Virus record (IMG/VR): IMGVR_UViG_3300037308_000217
Coordinates: 1 to 64,000 of that record
DNA from: a virus
DNA: 64,000 nucleotides
Direction: 5' to 3' (one strand)
The position numbers and the translations under genes are program-made. This document shows, in pieces, positions 1 to 64,000 of this stretch. The notes below the pieces were generated by a model. It saw only the letters and a program-made list of their open reading frames with translations. It searched no databases and was not told the DNA's origin. Position 1 is the first letter of the stretch. Each line of letters begins with the position of its first letter.

Positions 1-525
1 AAGCACATTTCGCGAATAGGCGTAAAATGCGATCCATCCAGAGCCCCTGAGCGAGTCCCAGAGCGAGACCCTGAGCGAGACCCTGAGCGAGTTCCAGAGC
101 GAGCCCCTGAGCGAGTCCCAGAGCGAGACCCTGAGCGAGTTCCAGAGCGAGCCCCTGAGCGAGTCCCAGAGCGAGTCCCTGAGCGAGTCCCTGAGCGAGA
201 CCCTGAGCGAGTTCCAGAGCGAGTCCCAGAGCGAGTCCCTGAGCGAGGCCCTGAGCGAGTTCCAGAGCGAGTCCCAGAGCGAGTCCCTGAGCGAGGCCCT
301 GAGCGAGATCAACGCGGATTCATACTTCTCCGCACCATCTTTCGGGGACAGTACCCAGACGACGTCGTTGACCTTGATGCCGGCGATCTCGGCCATGCGC
401 CTGGCAGCAGCCTCGGCGCGCATCCGGTCGGCCGGTACAGTTGCCGTGGCCTGCCGGAAAAAGCGATTACGGTACTCGGCGACCTTGGACTGCTGCTCGC
501 CGGTCAGTGATGTGATCTTTTTCAT
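1..525 (-). CDS. Tetrapeptide-repeat protein (xxSL)n; the C-terminus runs off the window edge
   Basis: The ATG at 525-523 overlaps the TGA of the upstream gene (ATGA). Translation: MKKITSLTGEQQSKVAEYRNRFFRQATATVPADRMRAEAAARRMAEIAGIKVNDVVWVLSPKDGAEKYESALISLRASLRDSLWDSLWNSL...GSGWIAFYAYSRNVL. The frame stays open to position 1 (175 codons). It is absent from the ORF track because it is truncated. Confidence 0.75.
   Translation of the reverse strand, partial: MKKITSLTGEQQSKVAEYRNRFFRQATATVPADRMRAEAAARRMAEIAGIKVNDVVWVLSPKDGAEKYESALISLRASLRDSLWDSLWNSLRASLRDSLWDSLWNSLRVSLRDSLRDSLWDSLRGSLWNSLRVSLWDSLRGSLWNSLRVSLRVSLWDSLRGSGWIAFYAYSRNVL
49..308. repeat. 12-bp tandem repeat, about 21-22 units (consensus GAGCGAG-NNCCH on the plus strand), lying inside a minus-strand CDS
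   Basis: Units read directly: gagcgagtccca / gagcgagaccct / gagcgagttcca / gagcgagcccct and so on, head to tail with no spacers. The minus-strand frame reads (R/W)(D/N/V/G/A)SL repeated. Confidence 0.95.
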
Positions 526-986
526 GGCTTCTCATTTTCGCCGCCCTGGCGTATGGCGGGCGGGGTGAGGACGGATCGGAGATAGACCACGTAGTCGTCG
601 GTATCGGATCGACCGATCTCAGAGAGCGAGCTAATCACGCCCTCGATCGCCTCGGTCAGCCGCGACACCTCCGAGCGCAGCTCGACCACCTCTTCGAACT
701 GCTGGCGCGCGGTGGCGAGGTCAACACGGCAGTTGCCCAAAAAGATGATGGATTCGTCCTTCTCCCTCGCCAGCGTCTCGCACTTCTCGACGTACCGCGC
801 TAACTCCTGCTGCGTGCCGGCCAATTCGGCGGCCAATGCTTCATGTGCCGGATCATTGAGCAGTCGCACGATCTTCTCGCGCAACTCGTCGGTGGCTCCG
901 ATTTGGCCGCTGACCGTGCGCCAGATGACCCAGCAGCCGCGTTCCAGATCCCAGAGCTGATCGTCACGCCATTCGTAGTGGTTCAT
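522..986 (-). CDS. Hypothetical coiled-coil protein
   Basis: ORF 522..1076 trimmed to the ATG at 986, which follows GGAGGTGGCA. The product MNHYEWRDDQLWDLERG... has a helical, heptad-like C-terminal half. Confidence 0.7.
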   Translation of the reverse strand: MNHYEWRDDQLWDLERGCWVIWRTVSGQIGATDELREKIVRLLNDPAHEALAAELAGTQQELARYVEKCETLAREKDESIIFLGNCRVDLATARQQFEEVVELRSEVSRLTEAIEGVISSLSEIGRSDTDDYVVYLRSVLTPPAIRQGGENEKP

Positions 987-1215
987 TGCCACCTCCATCT
1001 GGTTTCCACGGCCCGCGATAAAATTCGCAGACCGGCCAGGGTTGTCGTGATCGCTTCCAATGCCAGGCATGAGCACGATCTAGCCGGTATTCCCATACCC
1101 GATACCAGTGCCGTGCCGGATTGATGCCTGGACACTGGCGGTTGACCTTGCGCCGCTCCAGGCCACAGTGCACGCAGAACTCAAGGTCAATTACCGCTTT
1201 CCACCGATGTCGCAT
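964..1215 (-). CDS. Small Cys-containing hypothetical protein
   Basis: ORF 964..1230. The internal ATG at 1215 follows AAAGGAGTGGCG. The product contains CVHCG...C. It overlaps the next gene by 23 nt. Confidence 0.45.
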   Translation of the reverse strand: MRHRWKAVIDLEFCVHCGLERRKVNRQCPGINPARHWYRVWEYRLDRAHAWHWKRSRQPWPVCEFYRGPWKPDGGGNEPLRMA

Positions 1216-1234
1216 CGCCACTCCTTTCATAGCG

Positions 1235-1969
1235 TCACTTCCAAAACCAACGATCCTTGGCCGGTATCACCTTTTCCAGCGGGGCACCCGGGGCCGGCAC
1301 ATGAGCCGGCACCACCGGGGTCACGTTGACGACCGCCCGGAGCCCACTTCCCGCTGTCGTCGTGGCCATCACGTTCGCTTTCTTGAGCGCAGCGACCAAG
1401 TCCCCAGTCGTGGCCATCCATTCCGGAAACTCGGTGTAGCAAGCGCCGATCCGCCGCGGGTCGTGGGCGTCGCTCCCGCCCGTCCCCGGCAGCTCCAGGA
1501 ACATCGCCGCCCTGGCCGCTTTCTCGTTGCAGCTGACCCGCGCCAGGCTGGCCGCACATTGCCCGTTCGCCACCTCCACCCCCGCCATCCCTTGGAGCTG
1601 GAACACGCCGCCGCCCAGCGTTGACCGGTAACCGTGGTAGGGGTGGCTTGGCACCACCACACCGCCAGCCGCGTTGACCCGGTCGATCACGGTCTGCATC
1701 GGCGGGTAGAGCCCCATGGCCAGCTCCTCGACATCGACCCCGAACACCAGGACGTGCCCTTCCAGAGCGCTGTACTCGCATCCGGAAAACACGACCAGCC
1801 CCAGCGCGCGGCACGCCCGGGCAACCTCCAGCCCTTCCGCGGTATGAGTCTTGTGGTGGTCGGTAATGGCCAGGCCGTCAAGCCCGGCCGCCTTGGCCGA
1901 CTGGGCAATCTCCCAGGGCTGACCCGTGCCGTCGCTGCCCCTCGTGTGGACGTGAAGGTCAACCTTCAT
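1235..1969 (-). CDS. PHP-family metal-dependent phosphoesterase
   Basis: MKVDLHVHTRGSDGTG...AITDHH...SHP...GGSDAH is the PHP His/Asp pattern. The start was moved to the ATG at 1969, after GGGAGGTGGGCC. The ORF-track N-terminal extension is just the promoter sequence translated. Confidence 0.85.
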   Translation of the reverse strand: MKVDLHVHTRGSDGTGQPWEIAQSAKAAGLDGLAITDHHKTHTAEGLEVARACRALGLVVFSGCEYSALEGHVLVFGVDVEELAMGLYPPMQTVIDRVNAAGGVVVPSHPYHGYRSTLGGGVFQLQGMAGVEVANGQCAASLARVSCNEKAARAAMFLELPGTGGSDAHDPRRIGACYTEFPEWMATTGDLVAALKKANVMATTTAGSGLRAVVNVTPVVPAHVPAPGAPLEKVIPAKDRWFWK

Positions 1970-2023
1970 GGCCCACCTCCCTTCCAACTCTGTCGCGTGC
2001 CCCATGCTGCGACCTCCAATAAC

Positions 2024-2052
2024 AATATACGGCATTATGCCGTGCATTGCAA
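2024..2052 (-). promoter_or_regulatory. Sigma70-type promoter with a spacer palindrome (copy 1)
   Basis: Minus strand reads TTGCAA-tgcACGGCATAATGCCG-TATATT with a 17-nt spacer. It lies in a 106-nt intergenic gap upstream of the PHP gene. Confidence 0.7.
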
Positions 2053-2075
2053 CTTCATTCGACGTGATTGGCTTG

Positions 2076-2411
2076 CTACTTCCGGGGAACCGCCGTGAAT
2101 AGCTCGACCCGCACCGCCCACCCCAAGTCGGTCAGCTTGACGCCCAGCACCGCGACAAAGTCCGGGTTGTACTGCTCGATCAGCTCGCGCAACGCCGTCT
2201 GCTCGGCTACCTCCCTGGTCAGCGTGGCATCGGGTATCAGGACAGTCACCACAGCCCCGACGCCCACCGGTGGCCCCCGCGGGTCCACCTTCCGCTCGTC
2301 GATCATGTGCTCGCATAGCCCCTCGTCCGCCCACCGTCCGCATTCCGGACAGTGCTCATTGCCCTGAGCTGGGCCGCAGCTCGGGCAGCGGGTGTCACCG
2401 CAAAAGCACAT
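2076..2411 (-). CDS. Cys-rich (zinc-binding) hypothetical protein
   Basis: MCFCGDTRCPSCGPAQGNEHCPECGRW... The ATG at 2411 follows GGAAGGGG at suitable spacing. Confidence 0.7.
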   Translation of the reverse strand: MCFCGDTRCPSCGPAQGNEHCPECGRWADEGLCEHMIDERKVDPRGPPVGVGAVVTVLIPDATLTREVAEQTALRELIEQYNPDFVAVLGVKLTDLGWAVRVELFTAVPRK

Positions 2412-3195
2412 CGCCATCCCCTTCCGCCGGCTTCTCGGCCGGCTGTGCAGGTTGCTCCTCCAGGAGCGGGCGACTCCCTGTAAATCCCGCCCACAGCCTG
2501 GCTTGGATCATCTGCTCCAGCTCGAAAGTCGTCTTGTACGCACCTGGCCGGATTGGCACCTGAAATCCCCACAGCTCGCGGGCTGCCCCGACCAAAACGA
2601 GCTGAAAGAACCGGCCGTGCGGAGCGCGCTTGGAACCGTGGCGCTGGCGCTGGGTGTCGCGCCGGTAGATCCGGCAGTGCACCAACTCGTGCAGCAGCGT
2701 CCCCAGGACGGCCCCACCGTTCTTGTCCGGATCGAAACCCCGCGGCAACCGGACCACCGCCTCCCGGCCACCCCAGGCCACCCCCGTCGAGTACCCACCC
2801 CCGTAGCGCGTCCGCCCGATCGTGATGGGGGGAATCGGCTCCCAGTCGTCCGGATGGACCTTCCGCAGCGCCTGCCACATCTCGCGCGCCCAGGTCTGCA
2901 AGTCCTTCCCCTGGATGCTGTACGTCTGGGGCGCCCGCTGCTTGGCCCGCTCCTGCTCGGCCGCCTTCCGGAAAGCCTGCGCCTCCCGGCGCTGAGCCCT
3001 CGCCCGCTTGGCCTTCTCCTGGCGCTGCACCACTGCCGCCACCCGCTGAGACTCCAGGCTTGGGCACACCCGGGCGACCAGCCGGCCCGTTTTCTTGGAA
3101 CAGGCCAGGCAGAAGCGGCGCACGTCGTCGCACCGAGGCTTAGACGGCGCCAACACCCCGCGCCCGCATATCTTGCACACCCAACGCTTTTGCAT
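2395..3195 (-). CDS. SprT-like zinc metalloprotease with an N-terminal zinc ribbon (ArdC-C-terminal-like)
   Basis: HExxH motif in LGTLLHELVHCRIYRR, N-terminal CKICG...CLAC, and a basic coiled linker. Confidence 0.7.
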   Translation of the reverse strand: MQKRWVCKICGRGVLAPSKPRCDDVRRFCLACSKKTGRLVARVCPSLESQRVAAVVQRQEKAKRARAQRREAQAFRKAAEQERAKQRAPQTYSIQGKDLQTWAREMWQALRKVHPDDWEPIPPITIGRTRYGGGYSTGVAWGGREAVVRLPRGFDPDKNGGAVLGTLLHELVHCRIYRRDTQRQRHGSKRAPHGRFFQLVLVGAARELWGFQVPIRPGAYKTTFELEQMIQARLWAGFTGSRPLLEEQPAQPAEKPAEGDGDVLLR

Positions 3196-3204
3196 GGCGC
3201 ACTC

Positions 3205-3393
3205 CTACTCCTCGACCGTGACCTGGCCGATCGTGTTGCCGTTGCTGTCCCGGACCGACATGCCGGGGTTCTGGCCGCTGGCGTGCTTGACCAGCACCCG
3301 CCGCACGCCGTCGAGCACATCGCTCAGCTCCTGCGCCATCCCGTTGTCCGCGAACGCCGCGTTGTCCGTCGAGAACTCGATCGTGATCTTCAT
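3205..3393 (-). CDS. Small hypothetical protein (62 aa)
   Basis: This is the C-terminal part of ORF 3205..3942. The ATG at 3393 follows GGAGGCTGCC. Product: MKITIEFSTDNAAFADNG... Confidence 0.6.
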   Translation of the reverse strand: MKITIEFSTDNAAFADNGMAQELSDVLDGVRRVLVKHASGQNPGMSVRDSNGNTIGQVTVEE

Positions 3394-3410
3394 GGCAGCC
3401 TCCAACGGCG

Positions 3411-3857
3411 CTACCAAAGCGCCGACTTTTCCCGCATCGAAATGAACTGGCCATCCCCGACGATGACGTGATCCACCAGCTCGATCCCCAGCAGCCCCAG
3501 CCCGTCCTTCACCCGCTTGGTGACCTCGCGGTCCTCCGGGGAAGCATTCAGGTCCCCGGACGGGTGGTTGTGCACCAGCATCACCCCGGACGATCCGGAA
3601 AGCAGGGCCGCCCGCGCGATGCCCGCGACATCCACCGGGCACCGGTCGCCCGTCCCCTGGCCCACCTGGACCGCGCCCAGCAGCCGGTGGCGCTGGTCGC
3701 AGTAGAACGCCATCATGTGCTCGCAAGCTGGGGCCCCGAACAGCATGTTGAACGCTGAAACCACAGCCAGGGGCGAGTCCAGCAACGGCCGGCTCTCGTA
3801 GGGCACCGACCGATCCTTGACCAGCTGCACGCTCCAGAGTGGCCGATAGCTCGTCAT
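3411..3857 (-). CDS. radC: RadC-like JAB/MPN domain protein
   Basis: JAMM motif HNHPSGDLNASPED. The start was moved to the ATG at 3857, after GAGGGAGGCTCCC. Confidence 0.85.
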   Translation of the reverse strand: MTSYRPLWSVQLVKDRSVPYESRPLLDSPLAVVSAFNMLFGAPACEHMMAFYCDQRHRLLGAVQVGQGTGDRCPVDVAGIARAALLSGSSGVMLVHNHPSGDLNASPEDREVTKRVKDGLGLLGIELVDHVIVGDGQFISMREKSALW

Positions 3858-3868
3858 GGGAGCCTCCC

Positions 3869-4087
3869 TCACGCGGCCAGGACAGCGTCCGCCGCTTTGC
3901 TCGCCCACTCCCGCAGCCCCGTGTCGGCCAGGTCAACGTCAACCCCGCCGCACTTGGGGCATCCCCTCATCGCAGCCGACATCGCAGCCCGGACCGTCCG
4001 GAAGCGGTGCCCGCACTCCAGGCACTGCCAGTCGCACCGGTCACCCAGCCGCGCCGCCAGCCCGTCCCGCTTCCGTCCCCGCTCCAT
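3869..4087 (-). CDS. Zinc-ribbon protein (72 aa)
   Basis: CLECGHRF...CPKCGG. The ATG at 4087 follows GGAAGGGAGGCGGGTC. It is the first gene downstream of promoter copy 2. Confidence 0.65.
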   Translation of the reverse strand: MERGRKRDGLAARLGDRCDWQCLECGHRFRTVRAAMSAAMRGCPKCGGVDVDLADTGLREWASKAADAVLAA

Positions 4088-4118
4088 GACCCGCCTCCCT
4101 TCCGGAACCTCCAACCAC

Positions 4119-4147
4119 AATATACGGCATTTTGCCGTGATATGCAA
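4119..4147 (-). promoter_or_regulatory. Sigma70-type promoter with a spacer palindrome (copy 2)
   Basis: Minus strand reads TTGCAT-atcACGGCAAAATGCCG-TATATT with a 17-nt spacer. An A/T-rich stretch (TTATTTGC) lies just upstream. Confidence 0.75.
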
Positions 4148-4188
4148 GCAAATAAAGAGAGGGCGCAACAGCCCGATTTTCCGGAAGA

Positions 4189-4226
4189 TTAACGGCCCCG
4201 TTGACCGGGATTAACGGAACCGTTTA
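4189..4226. promoter_or_regulatory. Two tandem small palindromes, TTAACGG-NN-CCGTT, with starts 22 bp apart
   Basis: gaTTAACGGccCCGTTgaccgggaTTAACGGaaCCGTTta lies 45-80 nt upstream of promoter copy 2. Confidence 0.4.
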
Positions 4227-4234
4227 TCGAGGGC

Positions 4235-4423
4235 TCAGCAAAACTTTAGGCATAACTGCTCGGGCTGAGGATCGCGGGGGAACGGCAACTCCTGCTGCGG
4301 GTCGGTCATGCGGTGCCAATCGCGGATTGCCTCAGTGAACTGCTGCGCGCTCACCTCATCCGGAACTGTAAGCGCAACGGTCACGTTCTTTGGAAGGAAC
4401 TGGACTTGGGATGTGCCAGCCAT
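4235..4423 (-). CDS. Small hypothetical protein
   Basis: ORF 4235..4435. The ATG at 4423 follows GAGGTGTTCG. An alternative GTG at 4435 overlaps the dNK stop (GTGA). Confidence 0.55.
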   Translation of the reverse strand: MAGTSQVQFLPKNVTVALTVPDEVSAQQFTEAIRDWHRMTDPQQELPFPRDPQPEQLCLKFC

Positions 4424-4431
4424 CGAACACC

Positions 4432-5142
4432 TCACATCAACAGCCGCCGGTGCGCATCCAGGAACGTGTCCTGGGGCTCCCAGCGGGCAATGCGGGACAC
4501 CAGACCGCGGATAATGTCCGCTCTCACCGGGGAATCCGGTGGCAGGTCAGCGTCCCACGGTATGTCCAGAACCTGCGTCCCCATCTCCGACAGAACGCCC
4601 ACCATGCGCTCGATCTCCCGGTCCAGGGACAGCAGGTAATTCAGGTCGATTGCTTTCTCGCAGCACCGGCCAGGCCGAGCCTTGGCCCGGCTTTCGATGC
4701 GCCTGTTGGCCACCTCTGGGTCCACCAGCAGCCGCAGACAGATCGAGGGGAACAGCACCGACGCCGTCATGTCCTGGTACAGGCCGCGGTACGTCTCAAA
4801 TTCTCGCAGCGTCATCTTTCCGGAGCCCACCAGCATCCGGGCAAAGCAGGTGTCACCGTAGTAGGAGCGATCCAGGATCACCGGCCCTTGGCCGCTCAGC
4901 GCGTGCCACTGGGCCACCTGCTGCATCCGGAACCGGATGGCCAGCAGGTGGACCTGCATCGTGAGCCCCCACCTGGTCGGGTCGGCGTAGTAGTCATCCA
5001 GGTACGGGTTGCCGCTCTCCTCGTCGGGCTCGATCAGAGTCATCGCACCGGGCAGCAACTTCCCCAGCTCGGCGGCCAGGGTGCTTTTTCCGGAAGCAAT
5101 CAACCCCTCAACCGCCACCACTGGACAACGCTTACCCGGCAT
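4432..5142 (-). CDS. Deoxynucleoside kinase (dCK/dGK family)
   Basis: P-loop VEGLIASGKSTL, a DRS motif (ILDRSYYGD) and a lid region RIESRAKARPGR. The RBS is GGAGGT. Confidence 0.85.
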   Translation of the reverse strand: MPGKRCPVVAVEGLIASGKSTLAAELGKLLPGAMTLIEPDEESGNPYLDDYYADPTRWGLTMQVHLLAIRFRMQQVAQWHALSGQGPVILDRSYYGDTCFARMLVGSGKMTLREFETYRGLYQDMTASVLFPSICLRLLVDPEVANRRIESRAKARPGRCCEKAIDLNYLLSLDREIERMVGVLSEMGTQVLDIPWDADLPPDSPVRADIIRGLVSRIARWEPQDTFLDAHRRLLM

Positions 5143-5455
5143 GGGGGACCTCCAGGATGGTCGGCACCACCGTTTGCTTGGCCGCCTCGACGAAACGATT
5201 GTACGCCTCGTCGCTGAGCCGCTCGCAGGCGTGCGCCATCCGCACCTGGCCGAAAAAGTTGCCCAGCTCCATCAAGTAGGTGTGGTAGGCGCGGCGCTGC
5301 TCTCGGGCGGGTAGGGACTCGGACGGGCTGAGCGCGGTCAGGACATCGCACTGGATGCGCCGCACTTTCAAGTCGTCGAGCCTCCCCCGCAGAAAGGCTT
5401 GAACCTGGTCCTCGGTGCGGAGCGCTTCCCCTGGGTGGTCATCGAAGTAGGACAT
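5132..5455 (-). CDS. Hypothetical protein
   Basis: ORF with RBS AGGAGGGCAGC before the ATG at 5455. Third codon positions are GC-rich. Confidence 0.65.
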   Translation of the reverse strand: MSYFDDHPGEALRTEDQVQAFLRGRLDDLKVRRIQCDVLTALSPSESLPAREQRRAYHTYLMELGNFFGQVRMAHACERLSDEAYNRFVEAAKQTVVPTILEVPHAG

Positions 5456-5501
5456 GCTGCCCTCCTACCAACCACATTGCGCAGACCACCCGCCGATCGC
5501 T

Positions 5502-5771
5502 CTACGGTGGCGCCATTCCCCCGGCCCCGCCTACCCCCAGCCGGGATTGGACGCGCCGCAGCAGGGCCTCGCACTTGGAAACCGCCAGCGTGCTCCCCGC
5601 GCACGCTTGCTCTTGCAGCCGCAGGAGATCGCGCTGCAACACCACCCGTTCCTCAAGAATTTGGATGCGCTGGTGCTGGAAGTACACGGGCAACCCCCAC
5701 ATCACCGCACCGAACAGCAGGGCCAGCACTACGAACACCAGCGCCACAACCACAGGCGAGACTGCCAGCAC
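5502..5771 (-). CDS. Small membrane protein with one TM helix and a coiled coil; start uncertain
   Basis: The C-terminal part of ORF 5502..6068 reads LAVSPVVVALVFVVLALLFGAVMWGL...LQRDLLRLQEQ. GC3 is high in this frame. The candidate GTG start at 5771 has no well-placed RBS. Confidence 0.5.
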   Translation of the reverse strand: MLAVSPVVVALVFVVLALLFGAVMWGLPVYFQHQRIQILEERVVLQRDLLRLQEQACAGSTLAVSKCEALLRRVQSRLGVGGAGGMAPP

Positions 5772-5859
5772 CCCGAAATTGACCAGCGGAGCCCCTCCGC
5801 TCCCTCCAGGCTGCGCTTCCTGCCAGGGGTCGGTATCAGGAGCCGGCCCCCTCCCCGAT

Positions 5860-6159
5860 CTACTCCCTGGGGGCGCCACGGCGCGGCCGCTCCACTGGGG
5901 TCTGGTCCGCGTGGTCAACGAACCAGACCGCGACCTGGTCAAGCAGCTGCCGGTGCTGCTCCAGGTCGCGCGGTCGCAGGTACTTGCTGACGAACATCTC
6001 GGGGGTCCCATCTTCTTTCTGGCCAGGGGTCTGCCGGCTGCAAACGTAGCAGTAGGCGCGACCGCCATCCCGCCGCGCCTTGCTCGTGATCGAGGCGCTC
6101 AAATCGCCCACCGTGAGCACAGCTTCTTGCACCCAGCCGTTGTCTTTTCCGCTGTTCAT
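5860..6159 (-). CDS. Hypothetical protein
   Basis: The ATG at 6159 follows GAGGGCTGC, directly downstream of the dUTPase stop. Confidence 0.6.
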   Translation of the reverse strand: MNSGKDNGWVQEAVLTVGDLSASITSKARRDGGRAYCYVCSRQTPGQKEDGTPEMFVSKYLRPRDLEQHRQLLDQVAVWFVDHADQTPVERPRRGAPRE

Positions 6160-6166
6160 GCAGCCC

Positions 6167-6628
6167 TCAGAATCCGGTGGAACCGAACCCCCGCGGCCCC
6201 CGCACCGTCGCGGGCAGCTCGTTGACGTGCGCCCACTCTACAGCAGGCACTGCGCGGATGGCAATCTGCGCGATGCGCTGGCCGGGCTCGATCATCACCT
6301 TGTCGCCGAGCGACACCAGCAAAACCTTGATCTCCCCGCGGTAATCGGAGTCGATCGTGCCAGGTGCGTTGGGGATGACGATGCCCTGCATGGCCAATCC
6401 GGACCGCAACCTGATCTGGCCTTCGTACCCGTCCGGGATCGCGACCTCCAACCCCACGGGGATGGCAACCGGCCTCTCCCGGGGCCAAATGGCCTTAGGC
6501 TTGTCGATCCACGCGGTCAGGTCCCAGCAAGCCGATCCCGCGGTCCCCAGCACCGGGAACGGGCTGACCACCGATCCGGCCTTGGTGACCGGGTTGTCGG
6601 CCGCCCTGCACACCAGCACCGTGACCAT
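6167..6628 (-). CDS. dut: dUTP diphosphatase (trimeric dUTPase)
   Basis: AGSACWDL, GTIDSDYRGEIKV and RGPRGFGSTG motifs. The start was trimmed to the ATG at 6628, after GGAAGGGAG. Length is 153 aa. Confidence 0.9.
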   Translation of the reverse strand: MVTVLVCRAADNPVTKAGSVVSPFPVLGTAGSACWDLTAWIDKPKAIWPRERPVAIPVGLEVAIPDGYEGQIRLRSGLAMQGIVIPNAPGTIDSDYRGEIKVLLVSLGDKVMIEPGQRIAQIAIRAVPAVEWAHVNELPATVRGPRGFGSTGF

Positions 6629-7047
6629 CACTGGCTCCCTTCCGGCTTGCTGGTGGGGAAGCCATCGGGCCGGGCCGGGCACTCCCCGCAGTTGCCGTCG
6701 CACTCGGTCTGGACCGGCTCCTCGCCCTCGCCGGGCTCCTCGACCCCCAGCATCCCCAGAATCCACGCCGGCCCCAGCTGCTGGGCCAGATAGTGATTCA
6801 GGTCCCGCACCGCCTCGGTCAGCATGGCGGGGTGCTTCCGCCCGATGTCCTTCAGCCCGTTGACCAGGACCCCGGTCAGCAGACCGGAGCTGCCGCAGGC
6901 CAGCGCGTCCACACGGGCTTCCCCCTTTTTCCCCGGTTCCGCAACCACGAACAGCACCGACAAGCCGGTGCTGTCCACCACGCGCCGCAGCAACCGCAGA
7001 AATGCCGACGACTTCCGGACATCCTTGTGAAACTTGCTGCCTTCCAT
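6628..7047 (-). CDS. Hypothetical protein
   Basis: ORF whose stop is coupled to the dut start. The C-terminus contains ECDGNCGEC. Confidence 0.6.
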   Translation of the reverse strand: MEGSKFHKDVRKSSAFLRLLRRVVDSTGLSVLFVVAEPGKKGEARVDALACGSSGLLTGVLVNGLKDIGRKHPAMLTEAVRDLNHYLAQQLGPAWILGMLGVEEPGEGEEPVQTECDGNCGECPARPDGFPTSKPEGSQ

Positions 7048-7056
7048 TGTAGCCCC

Positions 7057-7431
7057 CTATTCCGCCGCTGGCGCGTCCGGAGCGGACAGGTCCAGCGGCC
7101 GCTGTTTGGTCTGGACATAGCTCTGCATCACATCGTAGGTCAACCGCTTCCCCGGGGCAGCCGCTGCCACCTTGGCGCAATGCCCCGCCAGGCACAGCAG
7201 GCCACCCCCGCAATCAACATCAACGTGGCACTCCTCGACCCCGCGCTTCACGCAGGTCGCCTCCAGCACTGCGATGCGCTCGCGCATGGCTGCGCTCTGG
7301 GTCGTGGCCACCTCAAACACCGACCTGGTCATCAAGTCGGCCTCTTTCCCACCTTGCACGCTCTTGTAGAGCGAGCCCAGCGCAGTCAGCAGCGCGGCGA
7401 TGGCGGCGATCAATGCGGCGTAGTTTTTCAT
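7057..7431 (-). CDS. Membrane-anchored or secreted Cys-rich protein
   Basis: The ATG at 7431 overlaps the methyltransferase stop (ATGA). The N-terminus MKNYAALIAAIAALLTALGSL is hydrophobic, and a CHVDVDCGGGLLCLAGHC cluster follows. Confidence 0.6.
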   Translation of the reverse strand: MKNYAALIAAIAALLTALGSLYKSVQGGKEADLMTRSVFEVATTQSAAMRERIAVLEATCVKRGVEECHVDVDCGGGLLCLAGHCAKVAAAAPGKRLTYDVMQSYVQTKQRPLDLSAPDAPAAE

Positions 7432-8078
7432 TTCCGCTCCAGTGCTGGCACTTCCGGAAGCCAGTACAGCTCGGTCGGCCCGTTGTGCCCGGCTGACCAG
7501 GTCACGAAGCAATAATCCGCGGTGTCGGTCCCCGTCGCCTCATACTCGGGGTTGGTGAACTTTGGCCGGTTGGCCAGGATGTGAACCGCGGCCGGCGGGT
7601 GCTCCCGGAAAAAGCGCGCCCGCTCAGCACTCGACAGAAACCCCTGGCGCAGCAGGAACGTCACGGTCGTCCCCAGCTCCAGGCTGCGCTGGATGAAGTC
7701 CATAGCCAGCGTGAAAGGCGGATTCCCGACGACCAGGTCAAAGGGCTGGTCAATGAAGGGGCCATTCCAATGCGTGGTCCGCGCCCAGCGCGCCGTTTCC
7801 GGAGCCAGGTAGTCGCCGGTCATCGACTCGTTGGCCTCCGGCCAGGGGCCGACGCCAGGGTCGGTGTCCACCGCCAAGATGTGCGCTTCCGGAAAGTAGA
7901 ACCGAGCCCCGCGCGTGAACTCGCCCCGCCCGGCACCTGGGTCCAGGATGAATCTCGGCGCCCGGCCCTCCCCCCAGCGCGGGATGATGATGTGCTCGAA
8001 ACATTGCTTCACCGCCCACTTGGGCGTGTAGTAGCGGTCGCCGGTCACGCTCGGGCGCTTGGCATTCTTGGCGGTCAT
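7428..8078 (-). CDS. Orphan DNA N6-adenine methyltransferase
   Basis: Motif I is ILDPGAGRGEF and motif IV is VVGNPPF. The start was trimmed to the ATG at 8078, after GGAGGCGTGCAA. No restriction partner is nearby. Confidence 0.8.
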   Translation of the reverse strand: MTAKNAKRPSVTGDRYYTPKWAVKQCFEHIIIPRWGEGRAPRFILDPGAGRGEFTRGARFYFPEAHILAVDTDPGVGPWPEANESMTGDYLAPETARWARTTHWNGPFIDQPFDLVVGNPPFTLAMDFIQRSLELGTTVTFLLRQGFLSSAERARFFREHPPAAVHILANRPKFTNPEYEATGTDTADYCFVTWSAGHNGPTELYWLPEVPALERK

Positions 8079-8739: not shown

Positions 8740-8749
8740 CTCGACCTCC

Positions 8750-8789: not shown

Positions 8790-8805
8790 TCTCGATCGCC
8801 GTCCA

Positions 8806-10230: not shown

Positions 10231-10247
10231 GTCCCTTTTTTGACTTT

Positions 10248-32961: not shown

Positions 32962-33459
32962 CTACTTCTGAGAGGTTGCGCCCAGCAAGTCCACGGCCAG
33001 CCAGCCGACCCCCACCACCGCTGCAACCGTGATCGTGGCGGTCGCGGCAGCCACGAACCACGGCTCCCGCCAGAACGGCCGGTCCAGCGAGTCGTCGATC
33101 TTGCTCCGGAGTATCCGGAGTTGCTCCGCGTGCATGTCCTGGTCGATCTTCCGGAACGCCTTTTCCTTCGCCAGCTCGATCTCAGCCAGCTGCGTCGCTC
33201 GGGACAGCTCGATCACCAGCCGCTTGTCGCAGAACTCGGCTTTCTGGCCCAGCTTGATGGCCAGCTCGGTCGTGAGCACCTGGCCGTCGAACGGGGCCAG
33301 CTCGCCTTTCCGGATGGGCGTTGCGCACAGCTTGGGGTCGTCCGGGTCACACTCCGGAACCGGGTCCGCTCGGGCGCTGGCTGCCAGCGCGCACAAGATA
33401 GCGAGCGAGAGCACCAGGGTCCTTCCGGAGTTGCTCAGCCTCTTGCTTCTGCTTTGCAT
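32962..33459 (-). CDS. Envelope protein with an N-terminal signal peptide and a C-terminal TM helix (spanin-like candidate)
   Basis: The ATG at 33459 follows GGAGGCGTTGG. The N-terminus is MQSRSKRLSNSGRTLVLSLAILCALAASARADP and the C-terminus is WFVAAATATITVAAVVGVGWLAV. The gene starts 113 nt inside the preceding gene, in another frame. Confidence 0.5.
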   Translation of the reverse strand: MQSRSKRLSNSGRTLVLSLAILCALAASARADPVPECDPDDPKLCATPIRKGELAPFDGQVLTTELAIKLGQKAEFCDKRLVIELSRATQLAEIELAKEKAFRKIDQDMHAEQLRILRSKIDDSLDRPFWREPWFVAAATATITVAAVVGVGWLAVDLLGATSQK

Positions 33460-33724
33460 CCAACGCCTCCAGCGCCTCTCGGTGCTCGGCCTCGACCTTG
33501 GCTGCCGCCCGCTCAGCACCCAGCTCGGCCTTCCACCGGAGCGCTTCAGCGGCCGCGCTGCTGGCTTCCAGCTCGGCCTTGGTCTGGTCCAGGAACGCGC
33601 CCCGGTCCCGGACCCGTTTCGAGAACACGGCGCCGATGATGACGCCCGCGATGAAGAGGGGGATGTACCAGTGGGCCTTGAGCCACGCCCACGCCAGCTG
33701 AAACCTACCCGGCGACGGGGGCAT
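33347..33724 (-). CDS. Membrane-anchored coiled-coil protein (i-spanin-like candidate)
   Basis: N-terminal TM HWYIPLFIAGVIIGAVF followed by a charged helical region. The RBS is GAGGTGGCCG. Confidence 0.45.
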   Translation of the reverse strand: MPPSPGRFQLAWAWLKAHWYIPLFIAGVIIGAVFSKRVRDRGAFLDQTKAELEASSAAAEALRWKAELGAERAAAKVEAEHREALEALDAKQKQEAEQLRKDPGALARYLVRAGSQRPSGPGSGV

Positions 33725-34028
33725 CGGCCACCTCTGCTGGAGCCGGCGGTGCCTCGGGGGCCTTCCGGGCCGCCAGGATCTCCTTGGTCGTCTGGACCAT
33801 CTTGCTGCCCAGGTTGTAGCCGGCCAGAGTCAGCAGCATGGAGAACATGTCCCCCGGCAGCCCCTTGCCCTCGGCGCCCCCCAGGAACGGCGCCCACATC
33901 CAGAACGCCAGCCCGAACAGGATCAGGAATGCCAAGCGGCCCAGGCTGACAAAGGCGCCCTGGCCATTCTCACCGCAGACCAGGCTTCCACCGTACTTCC
34001 AGATCGCGCTCTTGATCGTCTCCCACAT
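33705..34028 (-). CDS. Holin-like small membrane protein
   Basis: The ATG at 34028 follows AGGAGGCTTGTG. It has 2-3 hydrophobic segments (LAFLILFGLAFWMWAPFLG, MFSMLLTLAGY) and a charged tail. Confidence 0.45.
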   Translation of the reverse strand: MWETIKSAIWKYGGSLVCGENGQGAFVSLGRLAFLILFGLAFWMWAPFLGGAEGKGLPGDMFSMLLTLAGYNLGSKMVQTTKEILAARKAPEAPPAPAEVADAPVAG

Positions 34029-61018: not shown

Positions 61019-63328
61019 TCAGGCCGCGGTCTGGCGCACCGTGACCAGGTGCAGCGTCGATTTGACAAAGTTGATCGGGATGACCGGGGCCATCTCCACC
61101 GAGACTTCCAGCACGTCCACGACCAATTCCAGGAACAGCGAGCGGTACATCACCAAGGCTCCGGAATCGACCAGGAGCCCCAGGGTGTTGACCGCAACGC
61201 CCTTGGCCGCGTTGATGGTGCCGGCGAAGCCACGCTTGCCGACCGCGGTTTCCATGTTCGTCCGGAAGTTGAACGCGGCGTAGTTGACCGCCTGGTTCAC
61301 GCTGCCTTCGCAGAACGCGATGTTGTCGCTCGACAGGTGCGTGGTGACGTTCCGGACCCAGCGGCGGCCGACGCCCTCGACGTTCTCCATGAACAGCAGG
61401 CCGGCCTGGACCATCTCCTCGCTGTCATCGGTCGGATTCCAGGTGCTGTGCTGCTCAAAACCGAGCACGTTGCCGTACTTGAACGTGAGGCTCGTGCCCA
61501 CCGCGGGGGCGCCCGCCTGCATACCGGCCGCGAGTGCAGCCTGGAAGGGCGGGGTGAACGTCTGGCGCTCGCCGGCCGTGTTGTAGCGCGGGATGCCCTG
61601 CGCGCAGGCCCGGATGTGCCGGGTGTTGAGATCGACGATCTGCGCCTTCACCTCGGTCTTGGTGGCGTAGCCGGTCATCGGCGCGTCCATGATGCCGACA
61701 AAGCCGTCGCGCTCGCTACGCCCGATGCCGCACATGTACGCGCAGTGCGCGTCCAGAGCCGCATGGATGGCCGGGTCCGGAGTCAGCACGACCACGCTGT
61801 TGACCCGCGCCCGCTTCAGCCAGTTGAGCGCCAACTGCCACTCGGTCGTGGTGGCCGAGCCCTCGCTGCCTCCGGTCAGGAACACCGGAATGGTCGTGTT
61901 GCTCGGGAAGCCGCCCTTGGCGCCGGTGGCTTTCTCGGCCTCGACCAGCTGGCTGCTGCTGTTGAGCCAGTACAGGATGGCGTACAGATCCGCCTTGAAG
62001 CCGGGGGCGGTCGGGTAGAAACAGCTCACCGCGGCCGGGCTCACGTCCAGGTCGGTGACCGCAAAGTTGGTCTGGCCGGTCACCAGGGTCATCGTGAAGC
62101 CGTAGGTGATCGTGCTGATCACGACCTGGCGGCTGTTGAAGTAGTCGGCTGCCTTGGTGATGGTGTTCTGGACCGCACCCAGGCTCTTAGCCGCGGTCGC
62201 GGACAGGGTGACCGTCCGGGCAGCCTCGACCACGCCCAGGGCCAGCAGCGTCACCTCGGTCCAGGTCGCCGTGCCGACCACCGGGGTCGTGCCGGCCAGG
62301 GTCAGCTTCTCGCGCTGGACTGCGCCGGTCAGGCCCTTGCCCTCGACGATCAGCGCCTTGGTCGAGGCACCGTCCGCGGCCACGGTCAGCACACCGCCGG
62401 CAACGAACATCGCCTGGCCCGAAAGCAGACCCGGGGTGGTGCCGGCGACGATCGACACGATGGTCGTGCCGCCGCCGCTCGGGGCCACGGTCACGGTGCC
62501 AGCCGCGCCGGTCGCCCGGGCGCCGAGCACTGCGCTGAAAACCTGGGTGCCCACGACGACGGTGGTGCCATTCAGGGTCAGGGACTCCTTGACTGGCAGG
62601 CCGCCACCATCCAGGCCCCACAGCTCGACGACCTGGTTGTCCGCGATGTTGCTGCTGGACACCTGGACCGCGATGGGGGCAACCGGCTGGGTGCCCAGGG
62701 CGCCATCCTGGCCAGCATCCGCGCGGGTGCCGGCGCAGGTGATGTCCCCGTTGGCCGCAACCGCCGCGGTCATGGTTTCCCAGCCGTTGGCGTTGCCGCG
62801 GTAGCCCAGGGTGAAGATGTTGTCGCCGCCGATGGCTTCCACCGACTCGACCTGGTCCTCGAAAGTGACCGTCACCTGGCGCGCAGCGCCGGGGGGATCG
62901 GTGTCCTGGATGGCGACCTGGATCTGGCCGGTGAACGCGCCAAAGTCGCGGCTCCGGATGATCAGGCTGTCACCGTAGGTGTTGGAGAAGGTGGCCTCCG
63001 ACTGGGTCGCCGGATTCACCTTCATGGCCACCACTTCTTGGGCGCCGGCCTGGATGTCGGGGTCCTTGCTCGGGGCGAACAGGATGTCGCCCACCTCCCG
63101 CAGGTCGCCGCTCCGGAACATCTGGCGCAGCTTCTCCGGATTGGTGAATCGCAGGATGTCGTCCACCGATTCGATTTCGGTCACCGGCAGACCGCCCTCC
63201 GCAGTCCCCAGCACCGCCACGATGCCGCTGGCCCCCAGGCCGACGCTTTCGAGGCTCGACGCATCCACCTCGCTGTAGCTGCCGGGAACGTGGATCACCC
63301 GCCCGTTGAAGAAAATACTGGTGGCCAC
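61019..63328 (-). CDS. Contractile tail sheath protein
   Basis: 769 aa. The N-terminus HVPGSYSEVDAS resembles the sheath PGVY motif, and the tube gene follows. The GTG start follows AGGAGGTGTCTA. Confidence 0.75.
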   Translation of the reverse strand: MATSIFFNGRVIHVPGSYSEVDASSLESVGLGASGIVAVLGTAEGGLPVTEIESVDDILRFTNPEKLRQMFRSGDLREVGDILFAPSKDPDIQAGAQEVVAMKVNPATQSEATFSNTYGDSLIIRSRDFGAFTGQIQVAIQDTDPPGAARQVTVTFEDQVESVEAIGGDNIFTLGYRGNANGWETMTAAVAANGDITCAGTRADAGQDGALGTQPVAPIAVQVSSSNIADNQVVELWGLDGGGLPVKESLTLNGTTVVVGTQVFSAVLGARATGAAGTVTVAPSGGGTTIVSIVAGTTPGLLSGQAMFVAGGVLTVAADGASTKALIVEGKGLTGAVQREKLTLAGTTPVVGTATWTEVTLLALGVVEAARTVTLSATAAKSLGAVQNTITKAADYFNSRQVVISTITYGFTMTLVTGQTNFAVTDLDVSPAAVSCFYPTAPGFKADLYAILYWLNSSSQLVEAEKATGAKGGFPSNTTIPVFLTGGSEGSATTTEWQLALNWLKRARVNSVVVLTPDPAIHAALDAHCAYMCGIGRSERDGFVGIMDAPMTGYATKTEVKAQIVDLNTRHIRACAQGIPRYNTAGERQTFTPPFQAALAAGMQAGAPAVGTSLTFKYGNVLGFEQHSTWNPTDDSEEMVQAGLLFMENVEGVGRRWVRNVTTHLSSDNIAFCEGSVNQAVNYAAFNFRTNMETAVGKRGFAGTINAAKGVAVNTLGLLVDSGALVMYRSLFLELVVDVLEVSVEMAPVIPINFVKSTLHLVTVRQTAA

Positions 63329-63364
63329 TAGACACCTCCTTTAACGTGTGGTATCCTTGAGCCC

Positions 63365-63898
63365 ATGAGAACTCGCGGCCCGACACGCTTGCTCTGGAAA
63401 CCCGATCCTACTTGGTTTTGGTCCTTTGTCGATAAGCAAGGCCCGACTTCCAAATTGGGCACTGCTTGCTGGGTATGGACGGGGCATCGTGGCCGCTATG
63501 GATATGGGCACGTCATCCCGACAACTAGAAAATCCAGAAAGGAACATGCTGTACTTTCGGCCCACCGGGTAGCTTGGGAGCTGGAAATAGGCCCCATCCC
63601 CCCCGGCCGACTGGTCTGCCACCACTGCGCCAACAGGGCTTGCGTCCGCCCCTCCCACCTGTTCTTGGGAGATGATCAAGCCAATTCCGACGACAAACTG
63701 GAAAAGGGCCGCGGTCGCTGGGCTCATGGCGAAGCGCAGCATCTTGCCAAACTGACCGAAGATGCGGTACGCCAAATCCGGAAGGAAAGAAACTGTCCGG
63801 ACCCAACCCCCCTGAAGGATCTCGCCGCCCGCTACAACGTGAGCCTGGTGGCGATCAGCTGGGCGGCATTGGGCCGAACCTGGAAGCATGTGACCTGA
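63365..63898 (+). CDS. HNH homing endonuclease (the only plus-strand gene)
   Basis: CWVWTGHRGRYGYGH...AHRVAWELEIGPIPPGRLVCHHCANRACVRPSHLFLG..ANSDD is a typical phage HNH pattern. GC is lower than in the flanks. Confidence 0.8.
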   Translation: MRTRGPTRLLWKPDPTWFWSFVDKQGPTSKLGTACWVWTGHRGRYGYGHVIPTTRKSRKEHAVLSAHRVAWELEIGPIPPGRLVCHHCANRACVRPSHLFLGDDQANSDDKLEKGRGRWAHGEAQHLAKLTEDAVRQIRKERNCPDPTPLKDLAARYNVSLVAISWAALGRTWKHVT

Positions 63899-63902
63899 TC
63901 TC

Positions 63903-64000
63903 CTACCGAACCGGTTGGCTGCCGAACTCTGCCATTGCCTGTTTCCAGGCGGACATGGGCCGCGGGCACAAGCCATTGCGCTTGGCCCAGGACCGAAACC
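63903..64000 (-). CDS. 3' end of an upstream structural gene (partial)
   Basis: The frame ending ...MSAWKQAMAEFGSQPVR-TAG (stop at 63903-63905) has high third-position GC. It is truncated by the window edge. Confidence 0.35.
   Translation of the reverse strand, partial: FRSWAKRNGLCPRPMSAWKQAMAEFGSQPVR

Follow-up and report, generated by a model that had tools for sequence, protein, structure and literature searches.

The hexameric palindrome TCCGGA ranks first in over-representation among all 4096 hexamers in the window, the whole stretch of 64,000 bp of phage DNA analysed here, and its excess is a DNA-level signal that is independent of coding. An exact count gave 166 copies (2.59 per kb), compared with 21.6 expected from base composition, which reproduces the 0.34 per kb of the original prediction. 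An order-1 model predicted 23.9 copies, with simulations giving 24.6 ± 4.8 and a maximum of 45, and a maximal-order Markov model predicted 72.2 (observed/expected 2.30). TCCGGA was also first among the 180 hexamers of the same composition, with 166 copies against a median of 19 and 79 for the second-placed hexamer, and it was present in every 4-kb bin (6–16 copies). The excess ranged from 4.4-fold when codon usage was taken into account to 7.7-fold. Over-representation had earlier been claimed from counts made by eye, 27 copies in positions 1–11500 and 11 in positions 39960–46600; the exact counts are 28 and 12, and over the whole window the excess is larger than first stated. A further 9,976 bp (L121), assigned to the same phage by 0 mismatches across an overlap of 10.66 kb, contained 26 copies against 3.4 expected; the total sequence is 64–74 kb. 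Start positions from the exact search are as follows.

TCCGGA starts, part 1: 1422, 1781, 2344, 2726, 2849, 2967, 3594, 3997, 4101, 4180, 4359, 4819, 4926, 5089, 6398, 7014, 7076, 7453, 7798, 7888, 9609, 10183, 10371, 10459, 10691, 10865, 11107, 11443, 12867, 12897, 12990, 13035, 13367, 13663, 13944, 14323, 14605, 14995, 15850, 15990
Part 2: 16139, 16579, 16774, 16934, 17293, 17556, 17718, 17891, 18044, 18608, 18672, 19499, 19601, 21005, 21143, 21648, 22255, 22362, 22691, 22751, 23120, 24043, 24538, 24638, 24698, 25668, 25779, 26177, 27414, 27620, 28628, 29521, 30458, 30675, 31067, 31972
Part 3: 32287, 32318, 32675, 33105, 33114, 33150, 33309, 33353, 33424, 34415, 34601, 34702, 34848, 35119, 35558, 35691, 36556, 36834, 36955, 38038, 38516, 38571, 38702, 38934, 39071, 39640, 40001, 40783, 41132, 41463, 42663, 42974, 43592, 45015, 45341, 45363, 46087, 46527, 46888
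Part 4: 47353, 47486, 47718, 48094, 48115, 48261, 48578, 48971, 49320, 49917, 50182, 50670, 50769, 50836, 51422, 52002, 52885, 53001, 53225, 53395, 53678, 54303, 54677, 54810, 55277, 55467, 55554, 56096, 56166, 56481, 56623, 56825, 57281, 57450, 57726, 59124
Part 5: 59471, 59491, 59980, 60423, 60580, 60736, 61160, 61261, 61351, 61776, 62953, 63112, 63135, 63777, 63796

Genes were called with our own GC3 and codon-likelihood caller, which yielded 59–61 genes, 58 of them on the minus strand, at 90% coding. A codon-preserving shuffle had been proposed as a check on the original prediction, and the excess stood: shuffles that kept both the protein and the codon usage produced 32.9 ± 5.2 in-gene copies (maximum 50) against the 147–148 observed (z about 22). 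Codon permutation gave an expectation of 20.8 copies in genes, and a shuffle that additionally forbade 76 depleted hexamers gave 26–37. As had been claimed, the motif was enriched in all three codon phases (46/59/42 copies, compared with 4.0/18.9/10.0 in the synonymous shuffle) as well as outside genes, where 5.3 kb of uncalled or non-coding DNA contained 12 copies against 1.7 expected, or about 7-fold. Ser-Gly pairs were written TCC-GGA in 46 of 145 cases, while GGA accounts for 8% of Gly codons. The protein sequences are not reshaped by the excess, and only synonymous and non-coding positions are affected. The synonymous, codon-permutation and avoidance-constrained shuffles support the earlier view that the cause lies at the DNA level and is not a codon or dipeptide artefact.

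The same genome shows extreme avoidance of other palindromes. In the window, 33 of the 64 hexamer palindromes occurred at most once. Type IIS words were missing too, GAAGAC and GAGACC among them. Type II restriction weighs heavily on this phage, whose DNA is not generally modified, and the TCCGGA excess does run opposite to the expected trend, as had been noted. It is not a side effect of this avoidance, since the avoidance-constrained shuffle reached only 26–37 copies. Known Type II enzymes recognise TCCGGA (BspEI, Kpn2I, AccIII), and BspEI is blocked by N6-methylation of the last A of the site from overlapping Dam sites. An abundant palindrome in a restriction-purged phage implies either that its sites are protected or that no cognate enzyme is encountered.

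TCCGGA extends weakly and symmetrically to TTCCGGAA, of which the window holds 29 copies against 0.69 expected. At synonymous positions, T preceded the motif in 43% of cases (background 10.5%) and A followed it in 39% (background 6.3%). The two flank preferences were mutually independent, with 27.8 copies of TTCCGGAA expected on that basis and 29 found. Extensions to 7- and 8-mers were about as numerous on the coding strand as their own reverse complements. No enrichment of half-sites was seen, TCCGG followed by a base other than A and CCGGA preceded by a base other than T both being at or below expectation. This strand symmetry of TCCGGA and its extensions points to recognition on double-stranded DNA.

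We then considered where the copies lie. Synonymous change could create TCCGGA at 368 positions, and 148 of these (about 40%) carry it, with equal use of reachable positions in the replication and structural modules. Spacing was exponential, that is, random at short range (CV 0.90), and spacing analysis across the window revealed neither regularity nor clustering. The densest local cluster was the following.

33105..33156, minus strand: TTCCGGAA, 28 bases, TCCGGA, 3 bases, TCCGGA, inside ORF 32962..33897 (minus strand)

The sequence around this cluster is a single open reading frame with a hydrophobic C-terminal segment at its end, and we rejected an intergenic array here because the cluster lies within that frame. 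Taken together, the use of about 40% of reachable positions, the random spacing, the unreshaped proteins and the lack of conservation of positions described below show that the pressure depends on the density or copy number of TCCGGA and not on particular positions. A role as a packaging signal, raised in the original prediction, fits poorly with this random, genome-wide placement.

Two relatives, L036 and L031, which lie on separate branches of the tail-sheath tree and each adjoin sister phages that do not have the excess, share the abundance of TCCGGA together with the same T/A flanks. The excess was absent in about 25 other relatives, and those without it have the same number of TCCGGA-reachable positions as this phage. 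Against L031, where synonymous sites are saturated, 7 of 13 TCCGGA positions were shared, with a baseline of 59%; against L036, where they are unsaturated, 14 of 20 were shared. Individual sites are thus not conserved beyond the baseline in the L031 comparison or beyond shared ancestry. The excess arose independently in two phage branches, which fits a mobile or host-borne determinant of specificity. In another relative (L021), GAGCTC and TGGCCA were over-represented in place of TCCGGA.

The window encodes one candidate for an enzyme that could protect these sites.

7428..8078, minus strand: candidate orphan DNA N6-adenine methyltransferase, 216 aa, with motifs YYTP, LDPGAGRGEF and GNPPF

This ORF, which itself contains TCCGGA at 7798 and 7888, matched PHROG 799 ‘DNA methyltransferase’ at 2.1e-33 and no Pfam or NCBIfam family, and a profile of 22 of its homologues matched M.TaqI at 3e-8. 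Its AF2 model (pLDDT 89) is a single Rossmann domain, and the best PDB matches were the catalytic domains of M.TaqI and M.BseCI (TMq about 0.6). The order of motifs, YYTPKW (N-terminal motif X), LDPGAGRGEF (motif I, FxGxG) and GNPPF (motif IV, (D/N)PP(Y/F)), is the same as in those two enzymes, and G118, N119, P120 and P121 are invariant in the 22 homologues. M.TaqI and M.BseCI differ in being 421 and 579 aa long, whereas the matches to the present model cover catalytic domains only and it includes no separate C-terminal target-recognition domain. Sequence and model together make it credible that the ORF is a gamma-class N6-adenine DNA methyltransferase core. A homologue with 55% identity occupies the syntenic place in the TCCGGA-rich L036. 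However, at least 10 phage contigs with neither the TCCGGA excess nor any other hyper-abundant palindrome carry homologues at 42–49% identity, which leaves the link between this methyltransferase and TCCGGA unsupported, and a family-motif scan of IMG/VR matched no copy in the TCCGGA-rich 110-kb contig L031. The earlier suggestion of an N6A methyltransferase thus holds as regards an M.TaqI-type core; as a protector the protein is a candidate whose family does not track TCCGGA.

We tentatively favour the possibility that TCCGGA is a HIP-like iterated palindrome targeted by a TCCGGA-specific methyltransferase; in this reading, methylation, the enzyme responsible and the manner in which copies accumulated are all inferred. 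Pressure on double-stranded DNA would hold TCCGGA, with a weaker outer preference towards TTCCGGAA, at high density throughout the genome. The most likely agent would be a TCCGGA-specific DNA methyltransferase, either the M.TaqI-like protein of the phage acting on the terminal A, or a host enzyme. Methylation would render the ~270 TCCGGA sites per genome harmless to restriction of the BspEI/Kpn2I type, and protected copies would accumulate outside genes and at synonymous positions by one of two methylation-coupled routes. The first would be selection for densely marked DNA, as a self mark or for strand or repair discrimination. The second would be a repair bias in which methylated sites decay slowly, as in the ratchet model of Elhai. 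A cyanobacterial precedent exists: alternate HIPs are found together with a methyltransferase that has the matching specificity, and a ratchet driven by methyl-directed repair has been put forward for HIPs (Elhai 2015, PMC4390886).

We also considered a simple VSP-type (Vsr-like) conversion drive, which predicts depletion of one-step neighbours and a Vsr-like nuclease. No Vsr-, MutH-, MutS/L- or restriction-endonuclease-like proteins were found among about 50 window proteins, and the transition neighbours were not depleted (TCTGGA 50 against 33 expected, TCCAGA 27 against 21), TTCGGA and TCCGAA being at about 1x expectation. These results are not what such a drive predicts. Two further considerations count against the methylation reading: we know of no system that explains how dense methyl marks would benefit a phage, and, to our knowledge, methyltransferases and restriction enzymes do not show outer T/A flank preferences this large. 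We are somewhat doubtful of a further proposal, that TCCGGA/TTCCGGAA is a maintained identity or protection code, its dense and probably methylated marks being read by a phage or host protein and having arisen convergently in at least two branches. Such a reader protein would tell phage DNA apart or shield it, for instance from processive nucleases or translocating defence systems.

It is unlikely that TCCGGA became abundant non-adaptively, through a mutation or repair process that the host shares and with no function in the phage. On this view a repair pathway acting on phage DNA would create TCCGGA preferentially, or slow its mutation, so that it accumulates where selection allows. The restriction of the effect to synonymous and non-coding positions, with proteins untouched, and the lack of conservation beyond shared ancestry are consistent with this, and a slow-decay sink predicts the normal levels of one-step neighbours that were seen. 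TCCGGA-rich stretches in scattered bacterial genomes, among them Planctomycetota, Bryobacteraceae, Leptospirillum and gut Clostridia, found alongside others in unrelated phage contigs, suggest that such genome signatures exist in cells; however, these bacterial and viral loci are a biased sample, picked for containing a cluster, and many are partly due to codon usage. Moreover, the phage has polymerase and recombination genes of its own for replication, a bias that fills 40–59% of reachable sites would be exceptionally strong, and no repair enzyme of such specificity is known to us. This explanation overlaps with the ratchet version of the methylation reading.

A Chi-like signal, by which TCCGGA would attenuate a nuclease or promote recombination, seems to us quite unlikely. 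The reader could be a host enzyme of the RecBCD/AddAB type or phage machinery of the SbcCD/UvsX type, and a palindrome could be read whichever end of a linear or broken genome the enzyme entered, giving protection after restriction and feeding recombination-dependent replication. A signal for which more is better, anywhere, accounts for the random spacing, unconserved positions and equal use by modules, and independent flanks are expected if the two orientations are read separately. The recombination set of the phage (SbcC-like, SbcD-like, RecA/UvsX-like and RuvC-like genes) and the heavy restriction pressure on it also agree with such a role. Against this, every Chi known to us is asymmetric and orientation-biased, whereas TCCGGA is a perfect palindrome with strand-symmetric extensions, and for a Chi-like site to be strictly palindromic would be a coincidence of 1 in 64. 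Phage Chi content is known to track recombination strategy, but, according to the abstract of the same survey, host Chi should be dispensable for phages that encode recombinases themselves (PMC3784561).

Equally hard to credit is the idea that an abundant dimeric protein of the phage or host binds DNA at these copies and would coat or organise it, for example as a nucleoid-type protein, a roadblock to translocating defence enzymes or a titration sink. The 6-bp core, strictly palindromic and with weaker T/A preferences that add at its flanks, resembles the energy profile of a dimeric site. In many unrelated IMG/VR contigs, TTCCGGAA is present in three copies at 21-bp spacing within 16-bp palindromes (for example ATTGTTCCGGAACAAT), so that phage proteins reading TTCCGGAA-centred palindromes evidently exist, and about 30 of the proteins encoded in the window could be placed in no family. 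However, no candidate binder was found among the window proteins, the sites are neither regularly spaced nor clustered, and we know of no phage or host protein that needs ~2.6 specific sites per kb. A dimeric binder alone also leaves the tolerance of so many restriction-type palindromes unexplained.

Finally, a coding artefact, a side effect of palindrome avoidance or an RNA-level signal is extremely improbable: nearly all genes lie on one strand, so each copy is also present in mRNA, and codon usage alone lifts the expectation from 21 to 33, but all shuffles gave 21–37 against 147–148, effectively refuting the artefact, non-coding DNA and all three phases are enriched, and nothing in an RNA or translation signal would call for the reverse-complement symmetry seen on the coding strand.

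Restriction pressure is generally expected to deplete phage genomes of short palindromes, and this genome combines both extremes, with 33 palindromes erased and one held at ~40% of its theoretical maximum. Sequence-specific forces beyond restriction avoidance can thus shape a large share of phage synonymous sites, with implications for codon-usage models, k-mer-based host prediction and genome recoding. If TCCGGA is indeed a methylation-linked mark or protection signal, it would point to a new way for a phage to label or defend its DNA, and the HIP1 question would gain a small experimental system with recodable sites in which knockout of a single enzyme is possible. If it is an identity code, the phage would likewise provide a tractable model for this decades-old problem.

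Comparison with known systems places TCCGGA in the sequence class of restriction-site avoidance, that of 6-bp Type II-like palindromes (Rusinov et al. 2015, PMC4687349), of which this phage shows textbook avoidance in 33 cases, whereas TCCGGA departs with the opposite sign. With Chi it shares frame-independent scatter of over-represented oligomers in coding DNA, where count matters over position, and a bearing on whether linear DNA survives (Bobay, Touchon and Rocha 2013, PMC3784561); Chi differs in being read on single-stranded DNA and about 10 times rarer. Local arrays offer another comparison, both the TTCCGGAA-centred ones of other phage contigs and operator-, iteron- or centromere-like arrays in general. 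The TTCCGGAA arrays have the 8-bp core in common with this phage, but each is one locus with three copies regularly placed 21 bp apart, compared with single copies placed at random genome-wide here. The closest known analogue, as the original prediction had proposed, is cyanobacterial HIP1 (GCGATCGC), whose sites are conserved between diverged genomes and distributed periodically at the 10–90 kb scale (Xu, Lawrence and Durand 2018, PMC5861425). TCCGGA differs from HIP1 in belonging to a virulent-type myovirus and not to cellular genomes, in having a 6-mer core with only a partial 8-mer extension, in its greater density (2.6 per kb), in positions that are unconserved in a saturated comparison, and in coexisting with the near-total removal of 33 other hexamer palindromes. 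Like HIP1 and the alternate HIPs, it is a short, GC-rich palindrome that is hugely over-represented (PMC4390886, PMC5861425), and it likewise occurs in every reading frame as well as in intergenic DNA at roughly one copy or more per kb, combines a methyltransferase- or restriction-like core with an outer extension and belongs to a set of lineage-specific palindromes. By analogy, the TCCGGA excess thus resembles the unexplained iterated palindromes of the HIP1 type, here in an uncultured phage purged of restriction sites.

The hexamer TCCGGA occurred 166 times in the window (2.59 per kb), each 4-kb bin holding 6-16 of these, compared to 21.6 copies expected from composition, 24 under an order-1 model (simulated maximum 45) and 72 under a maximal-order Markov model. 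It was the most over-represented hexamer, and no other among the 180 of identical composition was as frequent (166 copies against a median of 19). The counts made by eye in the original prediction were nearly exact, each being one short of the true values of 28 copies in positions 1-11500 and 12 in positions 39960-46600. The motif extended by outer T/A flanks, TTCCGGAA, was present 29 times against 0.7 expected, and a further 10 kb of the same phage, outside the window, contained 26 copies of TCCGGA against 3.4 expected. Literature searches for over-representation or methylation of TCCGGA gave nothing relevant. In the literature searched, and to our knowledge, no phage has been described with an iterated palindrome this strong.

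Synonymous codons were shuffled within each gene, keeping the protein sequence and the codon usage of that gene. The genes contained 147 copies of TCCGGA against 32.9 ± 5.2 in the shuffles (maximum 50), and the codon-aware ratio of 4.43 was the highest among all 4096 hexamers. Copies were distributed over the three codon phases as 46, 59 and 42, where the synonymous shuffle predicted 4.0, 18.9 and 10.0. TCC-GGA was used in 46 of the 145 Ser-Gly pairs, though GGA makes up only 8% of Gly codons; 59 of the 86 possible xTC-CGG-Axx sites and 42 of the 112 possible xxT-CCG-GAx sites were used, and 148 of the 368 positions able to carry TCCGGA without a change in the protein did carry one. The 5.3 kb of non-coding or uncalled DNA contained 12 copies where 1.7 were expected. 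A codon or dipeptide artefact was ruled out by the synonymous and codon-permutation shuffles and by codon-pair tables. With all three phases and non-coding DNA enriched, the DNA-level origin of the excess, as originally predicted, was borne out.

Other palindromes were avoided to an extreme degree. Thirty-three of the 64 hexamer palindromes were present in at most one copy in the window where at least 3.5 were expected, examples being CTGCAG (0 against 34 expected) and GGGCCC (1 against 70 expected), and GTCGAC, GCATGC, GAGCTC, CTCGAG, GGATCC and GACGTC were also among those avoided. Words of the Type IIS type were missing or nearly so (no GAAGAC/GTCTTC, and a single copy each of GAGACC, CTGAAC and CTCGGG), CTAG stood at 0.09x, and the set of avoided palindromes differed in part from relative to relative. 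The excess of TCCGGA could not be produced as a by-product of avoiding other words, since a shuffle forbidding 76 depleted hexamers yielded only 26-37 copies. A general liking for tolerated palindromes was also rejected: only TCCGGA (4.4x), AGCGCT (2.2x) and TGGCCA (2.0x) exceeded expectation, the others being at about 1x. By the codon-aware measure AGCGCT (32 against 14.4) and TGGCCA (65 against 32.6) were raised in the window far less than TCCGGA, and TGGCCA was mildly high in many relatives as well.

Neither half-site, TCCGG[not A] or [not T]CCGGA, exceeded expectation, and the TCCGGA core acts as a single unit. Outside the core there was a weaker, symmetric flank preference, with T at -1 in 43% of copies and A at +1 in 39%, also when these were third codon positions (background there 10.5% for T and 6.3% for A). 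The two flanks were independent of one another, the 29 copies of TTCCGGAA comparing with 27.8 expected on that basis. Counted on the coding strand, each 7- or 8-mer extension and its reverse complement had similar frequencies (for example, TTCCGGA 61 and TCCGGAA 69), a symmetry predicted by recognition of duplex DNA and not by an RNA or translation signal. Spacing was indistinguishable from random (exponential; CV 0.90, KS p = 0.18) and the largest gap was 1721 bp against about 1900 expected, which contradicts regular spacing or gap avoidance. The replication half (37%) did not differ from the structural half (43%) in the fraction of sites used, nor did genes of low GC3 from those of high GC3, indicating no dependence on gene class or GC3. 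The sole dense cluster, at 33105-33156, lies within an ORF, and an apparently 'intergenic' cluster at 33105-33309 was found to be inside ORF 32962..33897 instead. This minus-strand ORF was missed by a GC3-based caller, has a hydrophobic C-terminal segment and may encode a lysis or membrane protein; downstream of it, within 32800-32960, are a TATAAT-like box and a GC-rich hairpin, CCCCTGAGCGGCAAGGGG.

The window, of high GC content (64%), belongs to an uncultured tailed phage whose tail is contractile; nearly all genes in it are on the minus strand. PHROG and Pfam searches identified, besides the feature listed below, baseplate J, baseplate and hub proteins and an NlpC/P60 lysin; a family-A DNA polymerase, SbcC- and SbcD-like nucleases, a RecA/UvsX-like recombinase and RuvC; and a DnaB-like helicase, a primase-like protein, a deoxynucleoside kinase and RadC.

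61019-63328: tail sheath (PHROG and Pfam searches)

No tRNA genes were found in the window, and no Vsr-, MutH-, MutS/L- or restriction-endonuclease-like proteins were detected among its ~50 proteins. At positions 40-310, a 12-bp tandem repeat of ~22 units, CCCTGAGCGAG(T/A) alternating with variants of CCCAGAGCGAG, sits inside a minus-strand ORF running off the left end and presumably codes for a 4-residue repeat. There was no DNA match to the window among GenBank phages; at the protein level, myoviruses of Pseudomonas, Bordetella and Aeromonas, about 92 kb in size, showed only ~30% identity. The same phage was recovered as IMG/VR UViG_3300043175_000041 and as the 86.8-kb Logan contig SRR12687343_10961, the latter with 0 mismatches across a 10.66-kb overlap. 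About 35 relatives, with 45-61% tail-sheath identity and contigs of up to ~110 kb, were present in IMG/VR and JGI metagenomes. No closer relative for gain/loss analysis, above about 61% full-length tail-sheath identity, was found in these collections; a few short partial tail-sheath matches reached 65-69%.

The codon-aware test was applied to about 27 related loci, among which only three genomes showed a strong excess of TCCGGA: the window, the syntenic L036 (logan SRR32903016_19059, 32.5 kb; ~65% amino-acid identity; 31 copies against 6.7 expected) and L031 (IMGVR_UViG_3300045974_000806, 110 kb; ~43% identity; 55 against 9.4). Apart from L021, described below, the remaining loci showed nothing beyond a z of ~5. 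In the tail-sheath tree the window grouped with L002, L003, L007 and L009, and L031 with L027, whose TCCGGA stood at 0.2x. Since the window and L031 are on separate branches, the trait arose at least two times, or was lost many times. The flank preference was stronger still in L031 (T at -1 71%, A at +1 53%; 24 of 62 copies being TTCCGGAA), and its avoided palindromes were partly unlike those of the window. A different iterated palindrome was observed within the same phage group: in L021 (IMGVR_UViG_3300017989_000445, 1-16519, 45% GC) TCCGGA was absent altogether, GAGCTC (32 against 5.1, z 13) and TGGCCA (19 against 5.6) were in excess, and CTCGAG and CAGCTG were hyper-abundant too.

Orthologue alignments showed ~90 reachable positions in each genome, equal in enriched and non-enriched relatives, so that the proteins have not been altered to accommodate TCCGGA sites. 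The used fraction was 43% in the window, 36% in L036 and 59% in L031, compared to ~4% in other relatives. Between the window and L031 synonymous sites were saturated (identical codons 54% against 52% expected), and the 7 of 13 TCCGGA positions shared equalled the baseline. The window and L036 shared 14 of 20 positions, which shows little beyond common descent because synonymous sites in this pair retain ancestry (66% against 52%). There was no positional conservation of TCCGGA beyond shared ancestry. Taken together, the used fractions and the sharing data indicate a pressure on density, and not on particular sites.

The protector of the motif suggested in the original prediction was the product of the following ORF.

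7428..8078, minus strand: candidate DNA N6-adenine methyltransferase, 216 aa, gamma-class motif order YYTP, LDPGAGRGEF, GNPPF

It matched PHROG 799 'DNA methyltransferase' (2e-33), and a profile of 22 homologues gave M.TaqI as the best PDB match (3e-8). An AF2 model (pLDDT 89) superposed on the catalytic domains of M.TaqI and M.BseCI with a TM of ~0.6. The ORF matched no family in Pfam or NCBIfam and lacks a separate recognition domain. Sequence and model together make it a credible DNA N6-adenine methyltransferase, and this part of the prediction stands; the proposed link to TCCGGA was unsupported by comparison across contigs bearing homologues. L036 keeps a homologue at the same place. Homologues with 42-49% identity were present in L039-41, L400-404 and L406-412, none of which was TCCGGA-rich and several of which had zero copies. 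In IMG/VR, a motif pattern specific to the family matched eight contigs, that of L031 not being among them. A correlation of the methyltransferase family with the motif was rejected, as only L036 was TCCGGA-rich across the P0003, P0017, P0005, P0011 and P0007 contigs and the family-motif scan. The syntenic methyltransferase region of other relatives, searched with DUF932 and SbcC proteins as queries, gave unrelated or single matches only. A link of the motif to the 7428..8078 orthologue itself is possible. One phage (L402/L403; 10275-11273; 5233-6231) carries a small N6A homologue together with a C5 cytosine methyltransferase (PF00145), and has no hyper-abundant palindrome despite both methyltransferases. 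In L404 (Logan SRR17165164 contig), an unrelated phage bearing a methyltransferase homologue, an intein containing a LAGLIDADG endonuclease splits the large terminase gene at 10989-13847.

Cluster scans returned many bacterial and viral loci, and among the matches listed some were TCCGGA-rich over the whole 8-15 kb. These came from gut Ruminococcus, Lachnospiraceae and temperate phages resembling theirs, Planctomycetota, Bryobacteraceae and Leptospirillum; high-GC Proteobacteria and Actinobacteria among the matches listed were at background level outside the selecting cluster. The loci carry an ascertainment bias, and codon usage accounts for part of the excess in low-GC genomes. What they show is only that the window phage is not alone in being rich in TCCGGA, and they do not point to its host. 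Host identification from cluster-pattern scans of genome and viral collections was confounded by a 21-bp-spaced array of TTCCGGAA, and tetranucleotide similarity tracked GC content only. The array is a separate recurrent element of many unrelated phage contigs, with three copies of TTCCGGAA exactly 21 bp apart, often within 16-bp palindromes such as ATTGTTCCGGAACAAT.

L333, L354, L418, L422, L447, L414, L356 and others: 49-bp element (IMG/VR contigs, many from sample 3300045988)

It resembles the operator, iteron or centromere arrays bound by dimeric DNA-binding proteins. Another IMG/VR contig, L364 (9.3 kb, GC 31%), contained 34 copies of TCCGGA where 0.5 were expected, and in 21 cases the copy was extended to TTCCGGAA. 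Its longer consensus, approximately TCTTCCGGAACAT, lacks symmetry, and the copies are found both within small genes and between them, on either strand. The element repeated here is probably of a different kind.

These results demonstrate that duplex DNA throughout the genome is under strong pressure, of the density type, for a restriction-type palindrome; the phage is otherwise intolerant of such palindromes, and the origin is convergent. Simple VSP drive was rejected, as the transition neighbours of TCCGGA were not depleted. A purely mutational or repair signature common to phage and host is an unlikely source of the excess. That the motif is a Chi-like bidirectional signal attenuating a nuclease is improbable. 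The 21-bp-spaced arrays indicate that proteins reading the TTCCGGAA core exist. It is similarly doubtful that the copies in the window serve to bind a dimeric DNA-binding protein present in abundance. Readings as an artefact or as an RNA-level signal are essentially excluded.

We rank first, tentatively, the possibility that TCCGGA is a methylation-linked element of the kind represented by the highly iterated palindromes (HIPs) of cyanobacteria, on account of the likeness to HIPs and of their methyltransferase precedent. The recognition enzyme would be either the M.TaqI-like protein of the phage or a host enzyme, and copies may have accumulated via selection for dense marks or through slow decay of protected sites. 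The HIP-like character proposed in the original prediction is supported, the excess being confirmed and robust, and the HIP family is the nearest known phenomenon to the TCCGGA of the window. In cyanobacteria, alternate HIPs occur together with methyltransferases whose specificity matches, and a ratchet driven by methyl-directed repair has been put forward (PMC4390886), while the conservation of HIP sites argues for selection (PMC5861425).
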